From Syntrophaceae bacterium UBA2188 (GTDB taxonomy: Bacteria; Desulfobacterota; BSN033; UBA1163), in contig DCVM01000029.1 in the NCBI GenBank assembly GCA_002327985.1, positions 12,547 to 76,546 of the forward strand: 64,000 nucleotides of DNA. The letters are read 5' to 3'. Position 1 is the first letter of the stretch, and each line of letters starts with the position of its first letter. Shown here in pieces: positions 20,318-30,785 of this stretch. The notes below the pieces were generated by a model. It saw only the letters and a list, made by a program, of their open reading frames with translations, was not told the origin of the DNA and made no database searches. The translations under genes were made by a program, and so were the position numbers.

Positions 20318-21616
20318 TCATTCCCTAATTAATTTTGTTTTTTCCTGAGCTTCTTTTTCCATTTCCCAGACTGAAATAATAGGAAAGAACTTTGTGAAGA
20401 GAACGAGGGCCAAGACAAATCCTGCAGAGAGGCCTGCTAACATGGACCATTCCACCCATGAAGGTGTATAGATACCTCGTGCATAGGGAAGTCTGGGCTC
20501 ACTCAAGGTTGGAATGATGATGAGGTAACGTTCCAACCACATTCCAATCAAAACGGATACAGAGACCATGGATGTTCCCAGGATGGTTCGAAATCGCTTT
20601 AGAGCAAGGATGGGAAAAGGGATGATAAAACAGAAGAGGACCATCAGCCAGAATAGGGGAGAATATTTACCATTCACCTTTGTCCAGAAGACGGCAAGCT
20701 CTTCAATCCCCCCACCGTATAGGGTTGTGAGGTATTCTGCAAAAGTGAAGTAGAACCAGAGAAGAGTCATCGTGAGGAGGAGGAGACCAAGGTTGTTAAA
20801 ATGAATGGGCTGGAGGTAATCTTCCAGGTGATAAACTTTCCGTAATATGGCGGCGACAAGAATGATGGCAGCAATCCCGGAATAGATGGCCCCTGCCACA
20901 AAATAGGGAGCAAAGATCGTTGAGTGCCACATGGGTTGTGTCTGCATGCCGAAGACCCAGGAGACCACCGTATGGACGCTTACCGCAACGGGAATGACAG
21001 CGATGCAGAGAAAGGCCGAAGCCTTACTAAGGATTCGTTGCTGTTTTTCAGTTCCCGTCCATCCTAATGAGAGGAGTTGATAGACCCACCGACGGTGGGG
21101 AAAACGGTCCCTGAGAAGAGCGATATCGGGAATCATGAGGACATAGAGGAAAAGGACACAGGTGAAGAAATAAGTCATGATGCATGTAAAATCCCAGAGA
21201 AGGGGAGACTTAAACTGGGCATGAATGGCCACCCAGTGAAACTTTTCGGATCGGCCCAAGTCAAAAAGGATGTTGGTGGGGCCGGCAGCCAGGGCAAAGA
21301 CGGTCACCACCTCTGCAGCGCGTGTAATGGGGGTTCTCCATCCAGCGTTTGTAATTCTCAAGATCGCAGAGATGAGCGTGCCGGCGTGACTGATCCCGAT
21401 GAAAAAGACAAAATTAACCAGGTAGAGTGTCCAGGACATGGGATGACCCATTCCCGTCACTCCCAGACCCCAGACATATTGCCAACCAAAAGCGAAGAAG
21501 GACCATAAAAAGATGATACTGAGAAGGCCAACCGTTATCCGGAAAGGCCACCTCATATGGGTGAGAGGGGTTAAGATTTTATGATACTTTTGGGCAAGGG
21601 CTTCACTCTCCCACAT
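20318..21616 (-). CDS. NrfD/PsrC-family polysulfide-reductase-like integral membrane subunit (ActC/QrcD-like)
   Basis: 432 aa with ~10 TM helices, as in the NrfD family. It overlaps the upstream Fe-S gene by 14 bp. Confidence 0.85.
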   Translation of the reverse strand: MWESEALAQKYHKILTPLTHMRWPFRITVGLLSIIFLWSFFAFGWQYVWGLGVTGMGHPMSWTLYLVNFVFFIGISHAGTLISAILRITNAGWRTPITRAAEVVTVFALAAGPTNILFDLGRSEKFHWVAIHAQFKSPLLWDFTCIMTYFFTCVLFLYVLMIPDIALLRDRFPHRRWVYQLLSLGWTGTEKQQRILSKASAFLCIAVIPVAVSVHTVVSWVFGMQTQPMWHSTIFAPYFVAGAIYSGIAAIILVAAILRKVYHLEDYLQPIHFNNLGLLLLTMTLLWFYFTFAEYLTTLYGGGIEELAVFWTKVNGKYSPLFWLMVLFCFIIPFPILALKRFRTILGTSMVSVSVLIGMWLERYLIIIPTLSEPRLPYARGIYTPSWVEWSMLAGLSAGFVLALVLFTKFFPIISVWEMEKEAQEKTKLIRE

Positions 21617-22301
21617 CCCATTCCCCTTCCTTGAGATAATAAACCTTGGGCTCTGTTCCCATCTCTTCTAACAATCTGAAGGCTCGACGGCTTTTTGAAA
21701 GCCTTGAGACCCGGCTCTTCGGATCATTCAGGTCTCCAAAATAGAGGGCTTCACTCGGACAGGTTTCAACACAGGCAGGAACCACTTCCCCATCCCTCAT
21801 CTTTCGTTTTTCCTTTTTCACCTTCTCTTTTGCACGGCGAATCCTTTGGATGCAAAAATTACATTTCTCTGTAATACCTTTTCTTCGGTGGTAGACATCC
21901 GGGTTTAACCCTTTTTGATATTCCTCTGGCCAACTCGGTTCGTACCAGTTGAAATATCGAACAGTATAGGGGCAATTGGAGATGCACATTCGGACCCCAA
22001 TGCATCGAGGATAGACCTGTGCCACAATCCCTTCCGGGTTTTTATAGGTGGCTGCAACCGGACAAACCATCGTACAGGGTGGGCGATCACATTGCATACA
22101 GGGGATGGGAAGGAAGTGCATTTCCACATTGGGATAATTCCCTTTAACTTCTGAGACAACGTTCATCCAGAACTTTGCCCTTCCAAGATGGGCTTCCTCC
22201 TCCCCCGCAGAGGGGATGTTATTCTCCTGGCGGCAGGCCACAACACAGGCCTGACACCCGGTGCATTTATCTAAATCAATCACCATCCCCCAGCGATACA
22301 T
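21603..22301 (-). CDS. 4Fe-4S ferredoxin-type iron-sulfur subunit (PsrB/ActB2/QrcC-like)
   Basis: Has multiple CxxCxxCxxxCP clusters (CTGCQACVVAC, CMQCDRPPCTMVCP, CISNCPY). The track ORF extends to a TTG at 22334. The probable start is M of MYRWGMVIDLDKC. Confidence 0.85.
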   Translation of the reverse strand: MYRWGMVIDLDKCTGCQACVVACRQENNIPSAGEEEAHLGRAKFWMNVVSEVKGNYPNVEMHFLPIPCMQCDRPPCTMVCPVAATYKNPEGIVAQVYPRCIGVRMCISNCPYTVRYFNWYEPSWPEEYQKGLNPDVYHRRKGITEKCNFCIQRIRRAKEKVKKEKRKMRDGEVVPACVETCPSEALYFGDLNDPKSRVSRLSKSRRAFRLLEEMGTEPKVYYLKEGEWDVGE

Positions 22302-29985: not shown

Positions 29986-30785
29986 CCGGATGACTCCTCT
30001 TTACTGATTTTTTTCTTACCTTTGAAGGTAAGGAAGAGGATAAGCAATAAGGCCAAAAGGAGGGTGACGATGCCAGTCACTTTTAACGTATTAAAGACAT
30101 ACCTTCTCCCCTGAGGATCATAGCTGAAGCAAAACCGAAGAACTTTACTGAGAGTGGGCCCGACCCTTCCCTCAGAGGCTTCCAGAAGAGCCATTTTAAG
30201 ATCAAAGGGGAGAAATTCTGTGCCGTAGATATAGCGGGTGATCTTCCCGTCCGAAGAGAGGACGATCAACGTCACCGGATGTGAAAAATCATCTCCCTGT
30301 TTTTTAAATCGAAAGCCTATGGCATCGGTCAGTTTATGGATCGCCTCTTGGTCGCCGGTTAAAAATCTCCAGGCCTCTTCCGGAAATGGTCTTTCAATCA
30401 TCTTGAGGTACATCTTTTTCTTTTCCCGGGCTAAATCCGGTTTCTCAGTTTCGTCAAAACTGAAGGTTAAGACTTGATACTCTTTGCCTGGTTCAGAACC
30501 CATTTTGTTGATCACGCCGGTCAAATTGAATAGTAAAAAACTGCAGACATTGGGACAGCGGTAAAAAACAGGGGTGAGAACAATGGGTGTATGGATGAAT
30601 TGTTTCAGGCTGACGAAGTTTCCGTTCTCATCGCGGAAGGTTAAATCAAGAGGAATAAATTGGCCTAATTTTTCTTCGATGCCAACGCTGGAAATTTCTT
30701 TTGCGTGCTCGACATGGGCCGGAGCAGTCTTTTGGAAAAAGAGGGTAGCCAAAAACAAAATGAATATTCTTATTCCCAGGCTCAT
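29982..30785 (-). CDS. SCO1/SenC family copper chaperone
   Basis: Thioredoxin-like fold with a CPNVC (CxxxC) motif. It has a C-terminal TM anchor. It is the first gene of the minus-strand operon. Confidence 0.8.
   Translation of the reverse strand: MSLGIRIFILFLATLFFQKTAPAHVEHAKEISSVGIEEKLGQFIPLDLTFRDENGNFVSLKQFIHTPIVLTPVFYRCPNVCSFLLFNLTGVINKMGSEPGKEYQVLTFSFDETEKPDLAREKKKMYLKMIERPFPEEAWRFLTGDQEAIHKLTDAIGFRFKKQGDDFSHPVTLIVLSSDGKITRYIYGTEFLPFDLKMALLEASEGRVGPTLSKVLRFCFSYDPQGRRYVFNTLKVTGIVTLLLALLLILFLTFKGKKKISKEESSG

Follow-up and report, generated by a model that had tools for sequence, protein, structure and literature searches.

A four-subunit module of the ACIII/Qrc superfamily in one operon with a caa3-type oxidase in an uncultured Thermodesulfobacteriota lineage

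In alternative complex III (ACIII), described in Rhodothermus marinus, Flavobacterium johnsoniae, Roseiflexus and Chloroflexus, the two-helix subunit ActD is the proposed coupling element. The coupling between quinol and protons, the roles of ActD, ActE and ActF, and the dead-end FeS wire into B1 are open questions for this complex. QrcABCD of Desulfovibrio (Nitratidesulfovibrio) vulgaris contains a cytochrome with six hemes. In R. marinus, ActB1 is cofactor-free and the partner of ACIII is an A2-type caa3 oxidase (PMC5928083). QrcD and ActC fall into distinct clades tied to opposite reaction directions (PMC6303296), and residue Y113 of QrcC, at the quinone site, is essential in Qrc (PMC13059093). 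A truncation named MFIc, which corresponds to a four-subunit architecture, has been in the literature since 2005–2006 (PMC1586193). Further variants include the actAB1B2CDEF clusters of iron oxidizers, with an FS0 motif in B1 (PMC4643136), and the actAB1B2CDE clusters of Nitrospirales, in which some Act subunits have been lost and which are immediately followed by a cytochrome bd-like oxygen reductase (PMC12342949). The MBNT15 clusters encode a four-heme ActE-like protein and are stated to be unlinked to oxidase genes (PMC9386147). Among oxidases, the Geobacter caa3 operon has the order coxACDB (subunits I-III-IV-II), and its subunit II is fused to a cytochrome c (PMC2996986).

We analyzed a 64-kb stretch of DNA (hereafter, the window) from Syntrophaceae bacterium UBA2188. 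An ORF check of the window placed ten co-oriented minus-strand ORFs from position 30785 to 20318 (Table 1), in the order SCO1, oxidase subunits I-III-IV-II (the last with a fused cytochrome c), ctaB, and the genes of a pentaheme cytochrome, a molybdopterin-fold protein, an FeS protein, and an NrfD-like protein. An earlier note, made from the sequence alone, had proposed this ten-gene operon with its gene identities and overlaps, and the ORF coordinates together with the Pfam and NCBIfam profile matches, which were obtained for every gene, bore this out. SCO1/coxA and coxIV/coxB overlap by 4 nt each and the FeS and NrfD genes by 14 nt; the remaining gaps are 21–111 nt, the widest of them (52–111 nt) around the genes of the four-gene module. 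No terminator-like or promoter-like site was found in a scan of the gaps, which is weak evidence. Across all operon genes, dN/dS is 0.04–0.2.

Table 1. Features of the operon and its 3' flank (positions in the window).
Feature	Position	Strand	Basis
SCO1/SenC-like copper chaperone, first gene of the operon	29982..30785	-	SCO1-SenC, synteny
coxA, heme-copper oxidase subunit I, A2-type	28369..29985	-	COX1
coxC, oxidase subunit III, short 200-aa form	27745..28347	-	COX3
coxIV, caa3-type oxidase subunit IV	27379..27702	-	TIGR02229, COX4_pro
coxB, oxidase subunit II with fused cytochrome c	26447..27382	-	TIGR02866, COX2, COX2_TM, Cytochrom_C
ctaB, heme O synthase (CtaB/CyoE)	25538..26407	-	UbiA, TIGR01473
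ActA/QrcA-like membrane-anchored pentaheme cytochrome c	24928..25485	-	Cytochrome_C7, PDB ActA chains
B1-like Tat-exported molybdopterin-fold protein, 794 aa	22446..24830	-	Molybdopterin-family domains
B2-like FeS subunit, four cluster motifs	21603..22334	-	Fer4_11, ActB match
ActC-like NrfD-family membrane subunit	20318..21616	-	NrfD, ActC chains
Non-coding stretch 3' of the operon, sole ORF 60 aa	19828..20317	-

The oxidase has the features of an A2-type caa3 enzyme: a YSHPxV motif, CuA ligands and a cytochrome c fused to subunit II, and subunits III and IV. CoxA (COX1, 2e-151) carries YSHPAV at residue 259 and scores 663 bits against TIGR02891 (CtaD_CoxA), slightly below the cutoff of 670.75. 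CoxC matches COX3 (1.9e-20), and the coxIV product matches TIGR02229 (60.8 bits, cutoff 37.25) and COX4_pro (1.4e-12). In CoxB (TIGR02866, 179.9 bits, cutoff 147.7; COX2 and COX2_TM matches), the CuA ligands are intact (H...CTQYCGLQHAIM) and the fused C-terminal class-I cytochrome c domain (Cytochrom_C, 3e-8) contains CIACH. The start codon of CoxB is uncertain, and the sequence from the TTG start had no exact match in the protein collection. Of the assembly proteins, SCO1 (SCO1-SenC, 2.1e-8, 34.6 bits, cutoff 22.8) has a CPNVC motif and a C-terminal TM helix, and CtaB matches UbiA (2.5e-41) and TIGR01473 (2e-52, 178.7 bits, below the cutoff of 210.3). Because ctaA was not found in the 64-kb window, heme A of the oxidase cannot be asserted. 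The earlier note had regarded the order I-III-IV-II as unusual, which it is not, because it is that of the named Geobacter coxACDB operon (PMC2996986); the cytochrome c-fused subunit II is shared as well. In the literature covered here, no report of an ACIII-like module joined downstream of the Geobacter genes was found.

The product of the last gene (Pfam NrfD, 1e-32) aligned over all ten TM helices of ActC and matched the PDB ActC chains with E-values of 5e-66 to 1.5e-59 (227 bits). Its only other PDB matches were ActF chains, at 2.8e-12 and weaker, and no Psr membrane-subunit chain was matched at E ≤ 0.01; against the QrcD model it scored 31.5 bits (cutoff 570). Using the residue lists for the ActC half-channels and quinol pocket in PMC5928083, we found identity with R. 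marinus ActC at 12 of 13 positions of the cytoplasmic half-channel and at 5 of 6 of the periplasmic one. The pocket residues Asp169, Trp82, and Phe89 are also kept, but His139 and Asp253 are replaced by Asp119 and Val221, so that Asp169 alone remains of the His139/Asp169/Asp253 set and the altered pocket reads D119, D142, V221. A neighbor-joining analysis set the subunit apart from the canonical "HDD" ActC group in 97 of 100 bootstraps. Judged by these alignments, it belongs to a large, widespread sister group of canonical ActC, of which the replacements His→Asp and Asp→Val/Ile/Leu are the pocket signature.

The pentaheme cytochrome (Cytochrome_C7, 2e-13) is anchored by an N-terminal TM helix, and CXXCH occurs in it exactly five times; it matched PDB ActA chains (2e-22 to 4e-16) and scored 86.9 bits against the QrcA model, below the cutoff of 180. 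Five CXXCH motifs are present in all but one of its homologues. The FeS subunit (Fer4_11, 1e-14) contains four Cys groups and no signal peptide of its own, and it aligned with residues 797–1022 of ActB (6f0k_B, 1.5e-66). Its third motif, RCIGVRMC, is of the 3-Cys, [3Fe-4S] type and aligns with RCIGTRYC at the same position in R. marinus, and its motifs predict an ActB2-like set of one [3Fe-4S] and three [4Fe-4S] clusters. The score against the QrcC model was 290.4 bits, below the cutoff of 400. A tyrosine common to QrcC and ActB (CIGTRYC), and the sole Tyr located among the Cys ligands of that ActB motif, is a methionine in this subunit (CIGVRMC); the mapping of Y113 to this position was deduced from the descriptions in the papers. 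The three changes at residues linked to quinone chemistry in ACIII or Qrc (His139→Asp, Asp253→Val, and Tyr→Met) may make the quinone site work in another way or send electrons in another direction.

The 794-aa B1-like subunit matched Molybdopterin (1e-30), Molybdop_Fe4S4 (7.5e-11), and Molydop_binding (3e-15), and the Tat signal reported in the earlier note is present at its N-terminus as the twin-arginine motif NRRQLLK. Among PDB chains, it was closest to ArrA (9e-101) and PsrA (9e-64), fused ActB1 following at 2e-13 to 3e-7; it scored 246 bits against the split ActB1 of an ActD-containing cluster. Against the profile models it scored 301.9 bits for QrcB (cutoff 440), 355 bits for NCBIfam ArrA (cutoff 1600), and 310 bits for PhsA (cutoff 694). 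The four cysteines of the FS0 [4Fe-4S] site are kept (C47, C50, C54, C82), as is a DPR...PGTD motif of nucleotide-binding type. At the Mo-ligand position, which the earlier note had singled out for inspection, the Cys of ArrA (SHSSVCAEAH) aligns to Gly and that of PsrA lies opposite a gap; the residue is G, D, or N in the window clade and variable or gapped across phyla, with no conserved Cys, Ser, or Asp among 45 homologues, and the neighboring Ser is Ala in one locus (L005). The alignment shows no conservation of the ArrA residues H189, S190, K198, Y166, and Y210. Following the fourth FS0 Cys is a Lys that the window clade keeps and that is V, M, T, or R in the wider family. With a dN/dS of approximately 0.08, the subunit is as conserved as CoxA, which exceeds what a mere scaffold would seem to need. 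It is probable that this subunit carries no catalytic molybdenum, and probable also that it still houses an FS0 cluster, where the FeS wire ends. An unrelated Psr enzyme, the alternative that the earlier note had named, was rejected on the missing Mo-ligand Cys and ArrA substrate residues and on the ACIII-type partner subunits; the large subunit itself is nonetheless nearer to ArrA and PsrA than to fused ActB1.

Consistent with the earlier note, ActD, ActE, and ActF are absent within the 64-kb window, and the search for actDEF and bc1 genes that it had suggested found none there. For ActD (PF11821), there was no suitably sized ORF in or after the operon, Pfam scans of the neighbors were negative, and phmmer with an ActD sequence (L060) gave no match in the window or in 58 loci. 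For ActE, no monoheme cytochrome c gene was found in the window, including by tblastn, and for ActF, the family HMM found one NrfD-like ORF per module only, in the window and in its relatives. The window also contained no hydrogenase, FDH, or cytochrome c3 gene and no tblastn trace of a b5-DUF2231 gene. However, an ActE-like monoheme class-I cytochrome c (6lod_E, 2e-7) is encoded directly or closely 3' of the NrfD gene in 22 clade loci, and the view of the earlier note that no separate monoheme ActE would be needed was thus overstated. By synteny (L004, L028), this gene occupies the site equivalent to the non-coding stretch of Table 1, ahead of a convergent PAC2 gene. The sub-lineage of the window has lost the monoheme gene at this locus, although a copy may lie elsewhere in the genome, and the non-coding stretch is probably a deletion scar. 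With such a gene behind that of the NrfD-like subunit in most relatives, a direct contact between the ActA-like cytochrome and subunit II would be one possibility only.

The same ten genes in the same order were present in 16 other genomes of the clade, at B1 identities of 64–85%, which argues that the arrangement is not due to chance. In 3 clade genomes (L008, L012, L023) the module has no adjoining cox genes. Modules from other phyla come with a class-I cytochrome c of 3 to 4 domains instead, which fits a quinol:cytochrome c role. The cultured aerobe Fervidibacter sacchari (PMC11535203) has a related ActA-B1-B2-C module, placed downstream of coxBA-ctaAB-coxC-coxC-coxD-SCO1.

Taken by their domain matches, the last four genes are predicted to form a module of the ACIII/Qrc superfamily. 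The earlier note had likened them to the ACIII core or to QrcABCD, and the likeness to ActA, B1, B2, and C holds (PDB matches to ActC, 1e-66; ActB2, 1.5e-66; ActA, 2e-22), but the module is a member of neither. With ACIII it shares the pentaheme ActA with an N-terminal TM helix, the Mo-fold B1 and the FeS B2 with a 3-Cys proximal cluster motif, the ten-helix ActC-type subunit with conserved proton half-channel residues, and the genetic linkage to an A2-type caa3 oxidase. It differs in lacking ActD, ActE, and ActF, in having B1 and B2 as separate genes, in a B1 that keeps the FS0 cysteines and is far less diverged from ArrA and PsrA, in the Asp/Val equivalents of His139/Asp253 and the Met in place of the Tyr beside the proximal cluster, and in its position downstream of the oxidase genes, ACIII being upstream. 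With QrcABCD it has in common the deltaproteobacterial host and the same four-part make-up without ActD/E/F-type subunits, namely a multiheme cytochrome, a Mo-fold protein predicted to be without catalytic Mo, an FeS protein with a [3Fe-4S] cluster, and an NrfD-type subunit. Yet it falls below the cutoff of all four NCBIfam Qrc models, its membrane subunit is not QrcD-like, its cytochrome has five hemes and not six, the Tyr essential in QrcC is missing, and it stands in an oxidase operon, whereas Qrc functions in hydrogenase- and formate-linked sulfate respiration. Among the variants of iron oxidizers, Nitrospirales, and MBNT15, the split B1/B2, the FS0 motif in B1 (PMC4643136), and the loss of some Act subunits (PMC12342949) recur, and the pairing of MBNT15 with a multiheme class-I cytochrome resembles that of the relatives from other phyla (PMC9386147). 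In contrast to our loci, all 58 of which lack ActD, these variants retain it along with an ActE cytochrome; the monoheme cytochrome is missing from the window as well, and for none of the variants is a link to a caa3 (cox) operon described. PsrABC and ArrAB(C) provide the best PDB matches of B1, have an NrfD-family anchor, and share Tat export with a hitch-hiking FeS partner; unlike them, the module has no Mo-ligand Cys or substrate-binding residues, it includes a pentaheme cytochrome, and its anchor is of the ten-helix ActC type and not of the eight-helix PsrC type. By these defining features, the module is placed outside both ACIII and Qrc, in what the sequences indicate is a separate, widespread sister group.

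We consider it reasonably likely that the operon encodes a complete terminal aerobic segment, in which the four-subunit complex delivers electrons from menaquinol to the A2-type caa3 oxidase, with SCO1 serving CuA and CtaB providing heme O. By homology to ACIII, menaquinol would be oxidized at a periplasm-facing site of the ActC-like subunit, from which electrons would move via the FeS subunit, at its proximal [3Fe-4S]-type cluster, to the five hemes of the cytochrome. The next acceptor may be subunit II with its cytochrome c domain, reached without a mediator or via a cytochrome c encoded elsewhere, and electrons would continue through CuA and the heme centers to O2. For the signal-less FeS subunit, the B1-like subunit would provide at minimum a scaffold and a partner in Tat export. 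Because the ActC-like subunit keeps nearly all residues of the two proposed proton half-channels, quinol oxidation is probably coupled to charge separation. Weighing against this reading are the three replaced quinone-linked residues, the lack of ActD as the proposed coupling element and of ActF as a second NrfD-like protein, the three clade modules away from cox, the monoheme gene of most relatives, the lack of ctaA in the window, and the strong conservation of B1. The streamlined quinol-to-O2 supercomplex of module and oxidase that the earlier note suggested is hypothetical. The operon combines known parts in a variant form and offers a plausible self-contained route from membrane quinol to oxygen.

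A Qrc-like operation in reverse or in both directions, with periplasmic cytochromes c that draw on hydrogenase or FDH as donors to the pentaheme cytochrome, seems unlikely. It would result either in electrogenic menaquinone reduction or in a hub passing electrons straight to the oxidase, with the quinone site as overflow. The subunit composition equals that of QrcABCD, the best NCBIfam models for 3 of the 4 subunits are QrcA, QrcB, and QrcC, the quinone-site residues depart from ActC, and the host is of the deltaproteobacterial lineage in which Qrc occurs (PMC6303296). However, all four equivalog cutoffs are missed and the membrane subunit, which sets the quinone chemistry, is ActC-like (227 against 31.5 bits for QrcD); the Met at the QrcC-essential Tyr, the oxidase-operon setting, and the lack of hydrogenase, FDH, and cytochrome c3 genes in the window also argue against it. 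Quite unlikely, too, is that the cox genes and the module are independent neighbors that are used or transcribed separately, the module delivering electrons anaerobically to periplasmic cytochromes, a role that has been suggested for ACIII-like clusters without oxidase linkage. The 3 clade modules without upstream cox, the pairing with multi-domain cytochromes c and not cox in other phyla, and the large gaps around the module genes are what this reading would expect. It is countered by the single strand and the gaps devoid of terminator-like and promoter-like sites (a weak scan), by the cox linkage maintained in 16 genomes despite B1 identities of 64–85%, and by the separate linkage in Fervidibacter.

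We regard as very unlikely that the 794-aa subunit still functions as a Psr/Arr-lineage enzyme, with Mo/W-bisPGD or redox-active in some other way, and acts on a periplasmic substrate, for which the cytochrome and oxidase would be the sink. Arsenite oxidase, a Mo enzyme without a protein ligand to Mo, is a precedent, and the similarity to ArrA and PsrA far above that to the cofactor-less fused ActB1, the FS0 cysteines and following Lys kept in the clade, the DPR...PGTD motif, and the CoxA-like conservation favor such an enzyme. The Gly at the variable Mo-ligand position, the Ala beside it in L005, the non-conserved ArrA residues, and the variability of that Lys in the wider family weigh against it, as do the ACIII-type partner subunits, which go with a cofactor-less B1 (PMC5928083, PMC6303296).

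Beyond the favored delivery of menaquinol electrons to caa3, a tentative and rather doubtful extension is that complexes with the Asp/Asp/hydrophobic pocket constitute a third functional branch of the ACIII/Qrc superfamily, with a redox-active B1 and the function of a minimal quinol:cytochrome c oxidoreductase in place of complex III. If true, it would be the sole complex III substitute in many uncultured lineages and Fervidibacter, and it would preserve an early stage of the transition from molybdoenzyme to ACIII. The highly conserved, FS0-bearing B1, instead of being an inert scaffold, could then let electrons enter or leave at a second point or harbor what remains of a catalytic site, and the complex of the window sub-lineage would be wired to caa3 without a monoheme mediator.

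As a four-subunit version without ActD, ActE, and ActF, but with the proposed proton channels of ActC and the FS0 site, the module offers a ready-made deletion series for the questions about ACIII. The host is an uncultured, presumably anaerobic, deltaproteobacterium-like organism. The operon suggests a complete quinol-to-O2 route in a widespread group of uncultured Thermodesulfobacteriota that carry the label Syntrophaceae and come from samples of peat, soil, groundwater, and lakes; this bears on "strict anaerobes" at oxic-anoxic interfaces, where an otherwise anaerobic lineage could use it for O2 respiration or detoxification. This idea is open to experiment, since a related module lies beside cox genes in the cultured F. 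sacchari.

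The ten-gene operon that the earlier note had placed on the minus strand of the window holds. It is a real, conserved variant with a predicted function. Ten contiguous ORFs were found, with 4-nt overlaps at SCO1/coxA and coxIV/coxB, a 14-nt overlap at FeS/NrfD, and remaining gaps of 21-111 nt. The flanking genes are unrelated to the operon and encode malic enzyme at the 5' side (divergent) and PAC2 (convergent) and a rubrerythrin-like protein at the 3' side. The rest of the 64-kb window contains housekeeping genes, and bc1, ctaA, and act genes were not found in it. A promoter and terminator scan across the operon gave no signal above the shuffle expectation and was uninformative, and a cluster-name look-up yielded generic names only (e.g., 'HybB-like'). 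Purifying selection acts on each of the ten genes; the dN/dS values, roughly 0.04-0.2, are approximate because synonymous sites are saturated (dS 1-4).

Features of the window and of related loci
Feature	Sequence	Coordinates	Strand	Description
Respiratory operon	window	20318-30785	minus	Ten products by Pfam and NCBIfam: SCO1/SenC, subunit I, III, caa3 IV, II with cytochrome c, heme O synthase, multiheme cytochrome, Mo-domain protein, ferredoxin, NrfD
Oxidase subunit I	window		minus	COX1, 2e-151; YSHPAV, A2-type signature
caa3 subunit IV	window		minus	60.8 bits against a cutoff of 37.25
Oxidase subunit II (CoxB)	window	26447-27382	minus	179.9 bits against a cutoff of 147.7; C-terminal cytochrome c domain
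B1-like subunit	window		minus	794 aa; Molybdop_Fe4S4, Molybdopterin, Molydop_binding
FeS protein (B2-like)	window		minus	Four-cluster ferredoxin (Pfam/NCBIfam)
Region 3' of operon	window	19828-20317		About 490 nt; only a 60-aa ORF; blastn found nothing similar in the loci compared
Oxidase gene cluster	window	49287-52857		CCG-domain protein, FAD_binding_4 oxidase, CCG+Fer4_8 protein; resembles glycolate/lactate oxidase (GlcDEF/Lld-like); no relation to the operon
Nitrogen-PTS cluster	window	1111-8231		rpoN-hpf-EIIA(PtsN-like)-HPr kinase-RapZ ... PtsI; typical regulatory neighbourhood
H-D-D ActC cluster	L060	716-7773		B1-B2-NrfD-NrfD-ActD-cytochrome c-CcmH; two adjacent NrfD-like genes, unlike actABCDEF
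Tandem paralogous modules	L029 (Anaerolineales chromosome CP070639.1)	10001-22382		One of the window's family type; second with 3-Cys B2 (CIGTRFC) and an ActC-like gene running off the locus; 8-CXXCH and 4-CXXCH cytochromes in between
Module with divergent membrane subunit	L048 (Candidatus Abyssobacteria)	9320-14427		ActA-, B1-, and B2-like set; much more divergent NrfD-type subunit (62 bits on family HMM)
Nine-CXXCH cytochrome	L012 (module away from cox)	14630-16348		572 aa; between NrfD gene and monoheme cytochrome c
Cyt-b5-like/DUF2231 protein	L024 (example)	11189-11884		Conserved, 231-267 aa, cytochrome b5-like domain N-terminal; directly after the monoheme cytochrome c gene; also in L011, L013, L019, and ten more; absent from window

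The oxidase half shows CuA ligands (H...CTQYCGLQHAIM) and a heme site, CIACH, in subunit II and a CPNVC motif in SCO1. Since the window lacks ctaA, the oxidase heme could be of either a or o type. The I-III-IV-II subunit order had been called unusual; it is instead the coxACDB order named for the Geobacter caa3 operon (PMC2996986), a label also applied to cable-bacteria oxidases (PMC12093952). When translation is taken to begin with the TTG at 27382, CoxB has no exact entry in the protein collection, in which the neighbouring proteins are present. An ATG lies five codons downstream, and the annotated start probably differs from this TTG.

The last four genes of the operon encode a module whose subunits were compared with proteins of known structure and with family models. 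The NrfD-like subunit matched ActC chains in the PDB (5e-66 to 1.5e-59), the only other matches being ActF chains at 2.8e-12 and weaker; no Psr membrane-subunit chain appeared in this search at E <= 0.01. On the QrcD model it scored 31.5 bits against a cutoff of 570. We then mapped it onto Rhodothermus marinus ActC using published residue lists (PMC5928083). Twelve of the 13 cytoplasmic and 5 of the 6 periplasmic half-channel residues are identical, as are Ser245 and the pocket residues Trp82, Phe89, Leu166, Asp169, and Val250, and the quinol pocket carries 2 substitutions (His139 to Asp119 and Asp253 to Val221). Conservation of the half-channels points to proton handling of the ActC type that survives without ActD and ActF. 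The cytochrome, with 5 CXXCH motifs and an N-terminal helix, matched the ActA chains of four ACIII structures (2e-22 to 4e-16). The FeS protein, on which no signal peptide was found, aligned with R. marinus ActB residues 797-1022 at 1.5e-66. Its third FeS motif has 3 Cys (RCIGVRMC), as in R. marinus ActB (RCIGTRYC), where this is the sequence basis of the [3Fe-4S] FeS1 cluster of ACIII (PMC5928083). Because FeS subunits of relatives from other phyla retain four Cys and a Tyr (RCIGCRYC), the combination of 3 Cys and Met is confined to the window clade. This Tyr is essential in QrcC (PMC13059093), and its change to Met makes, together with the His to Asp and Asp to Val substitutions, 3 quinone-site positions that are unlike ACIII or Qrc.

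The 794-aa subunit carries a twin-arginine signal, and its best PDB matches were ArrA (9e-101) and PsrA (9e-64), with fused ActB1 domains at merely 2e-13 to 3e-7. The split ActB1 of an ActD-containing cluster scored 246 bits against it and the QrcB model 302 bits (cutoff 440). Inspection of the Mo-ligand position, proposed in the earlier note, gave a clear answer: the subunit has no Cys, Ser, or Asp ligand. A Gly aligns opposite the presumed Mo-ligand Cys of ArrA (SHSSVCAEAH), the ligand region of PsrA aligns to a gap, and ArrA H189, S190, K198, Y166, and Y210 have no conserved counterparts. Among 45 homologues, G, D, or N occupies the ligand column in the clade, and elsewhere the column is variable or gapped; nearly all of them retain the FS0 motif CxxCxxxC...C. 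With the ligand Cys and the ArrA substrate residues missing and the ligand column unconstrained, the reading as an active Psr/Arr-type enzyme is rejected. The B1 gene has a dN/dS of about 0.08 (dS saturated) at 82-84% amino-acid identity, a constraint about equal to that on CoxA, and this conservation seems greater than a scaffold role would call for.

Scanning one genome per species for relatives gave 58 loci, all from MAGs except that of Fervidibacter sacchari. The complete ten-gene arrangement recurred in 16 Thermodesulfobacteriota, 'Syntrophaceae', and 'Deltaproteobacteria' loci, and the module lay apart from cox in three further loci (L008, L012, and L023). The absence of ActD, ActE, and ActF from the window was confirmed: no ORF of suitable size lies downstream of the operon, operon neighbours gave no Pfam match to ActD, the family HMM found no second NrfD-like gene, and phmmer searches with the ActD and cytochrome c of the ActD-containing locus L060 found neither in the window nor in the 58 loci. 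The further proposal that no separate monoheme ActE would be needed requires correction, since 22 clade loci carry, directly after the NrfD gene or past an insertion, a gene for a Sec-type class-I monoheme cytochrome c of approximately 134 aa. In the PDB this protein ranked a Kuenenia-type cytochrome first (6h5l_B), followed by ActE chains 6lod_E (2e-7), 6btm_E (1e-4), and 6f0k_E (1.5e-3). In 14 of the 22 loci the next gene encodes a Cyt-b5+DUF2231 membrane protein. Neither the window nor the relatives nearest to it (L001, L003, and L030) have the monoheme gene. In L004 and L028 it lies between the NrfD gene and the convergent PAC2 gene, where the window is non-coding; it follows that the ten-gene form arose by secondary loss and is not ancestral. 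The non-coding region looks like a deletion scar, and a version of the ACIII-like module without the monoheme cytochrome is credible.

Relatives at 35-49% B1 identity came from Aminicenantes, Methylomirabilota, Ignavibacteriales, Acidobacteriota, Planctomycetota, Fibrobacteria, Anaerolineales, and Armatimonadota. All have Asp at ActC-139 and Val, Ile, or Leu at ActC-253, and many of these loci have, before or after the module, a protein of 390-510 aa that contains three to four class-I cytochrome c domains. When 1.84 billion representatives were searched exhaustively with HMMER, 400 proteins matched at E <= 1e-30; among the best 150 of these, 61 carry D-D-[I/V/L] and 42 the canonical ActC signature H-D-D. 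Average-linkage clustering gave a clean division by signature, with one group of 49 D-D-hydrophobic and 11 other proteins and a second of 33 H-D-D and 5 other proteins. Neighbour-joining (NJ) analysis by unrooted splits, with the three signature columns removed and 100 bootstraps, placed 32-33 of 33 H-D-D proteins on one side with essentially no D-D-hydrophobic protein, and the window on the opposite side in 97 of 100 bootstraps. Its apparent position among canonical ActC in a midpoint-rooted NJ tree is, given these splits, a rooting artefact. Locus contexts agree with the division: an H-D-D representative stands beside ActD (PF11821) and a cytochrome c (L060), and a D-D-L representative within an ActA/Mo-Fe4S4/FeS/NrfD cluster (L063). 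The 3-Cys motif is common to the window clade and canonical ACIII, yet by its membrane subunit the clade groups with the other branch.

By composition, the module corresponds to the truncated 'MFIc' type, of which Desulfovibrio Qrc is the characterised example, whereas the sequences of its membrane, FeS, and heme subunits lie closer to ACIII. This truncated type was noted in deltaproteobacteria as early as 2005-2006 (PMC1586193, which cites Yanyushin 2005). Membership in Qrc is rejected on the NCBIfam cutoffs and the ActC-type membrane subunit, and the complex fits neither ACIII nor Qrc as these are defined. Described ACIII variants include a split B1 with the FS0 motif (PMC4643136), forms that have lost ActF and ActG (PMC12342949), and forms with four-heme ActE-like partners (PMC9386147). 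Our literature search found no description of this operon, with a module lacking ActD, ActE, and ActF behind coxACDB-ctaB, or of the Asp/Asp/hydrophobic sister group of ActC; earlier descriptions of both are possible.

By homology, the ActC-like subunit would bind menaquinol in its P-side pocket, with Asp142 as the equivalent of ActC Asp169. Electrons would enter the 3-Cys proximal cluster of B2 and pass to the pentaheme wire, then to the subunit II cytochrome c domain, and finally to CuA and the binuclear centre. B1 would supply the Tat signal for the signal-less B2, with FS0 probably held at the distal end of the FeS wire, which in ACIII has been discussed as a possible second electron path (PMC5928083). 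The quinone-site changes, the conservation of B1, and the mixed-branch grouping keep three other readings alive. A Qrc-like or bidirectional operation of the module would suit quinone-site positions unlike those of ACIII; the Tyr essential in QrcC is Met here, the membrane subunit is of ActC type, and we consider this reading unlikely. Mere juxtaposition of the cox genes and the module would fit the loci in which the two lie apart, and is distinctly unlikely given the order kept in 16 loci. A residual redox role of B1 could account for its constraint; that B1 is a true enzyme is, in view of the missing ligand and substrate residues, highly improbable. Quinol oxidation by the module with electron delivery to the oxidase is the most likely predicted route.

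The operon variant is testable in a cultured organism. F. sacchari is cultured and has an aerobic phenotype (PMC11535203), and its genes run coxB-coxA-ctaA-ctaB-coxC-coxC-coxD-PhyH-SCO1-DUF420-cytochrome-like-ActA-B1-B2-C, with unrelated genes after them. Within the module type, membrane subunits appear to have been swapped (L048). Many ActC-like representatives of both signature classes are 600-800 aa long (P0141, P0142, P0162, P0175, P0251, P0275, and others), which suggests fusions with other domains; CXXCH occurs only in P0275.
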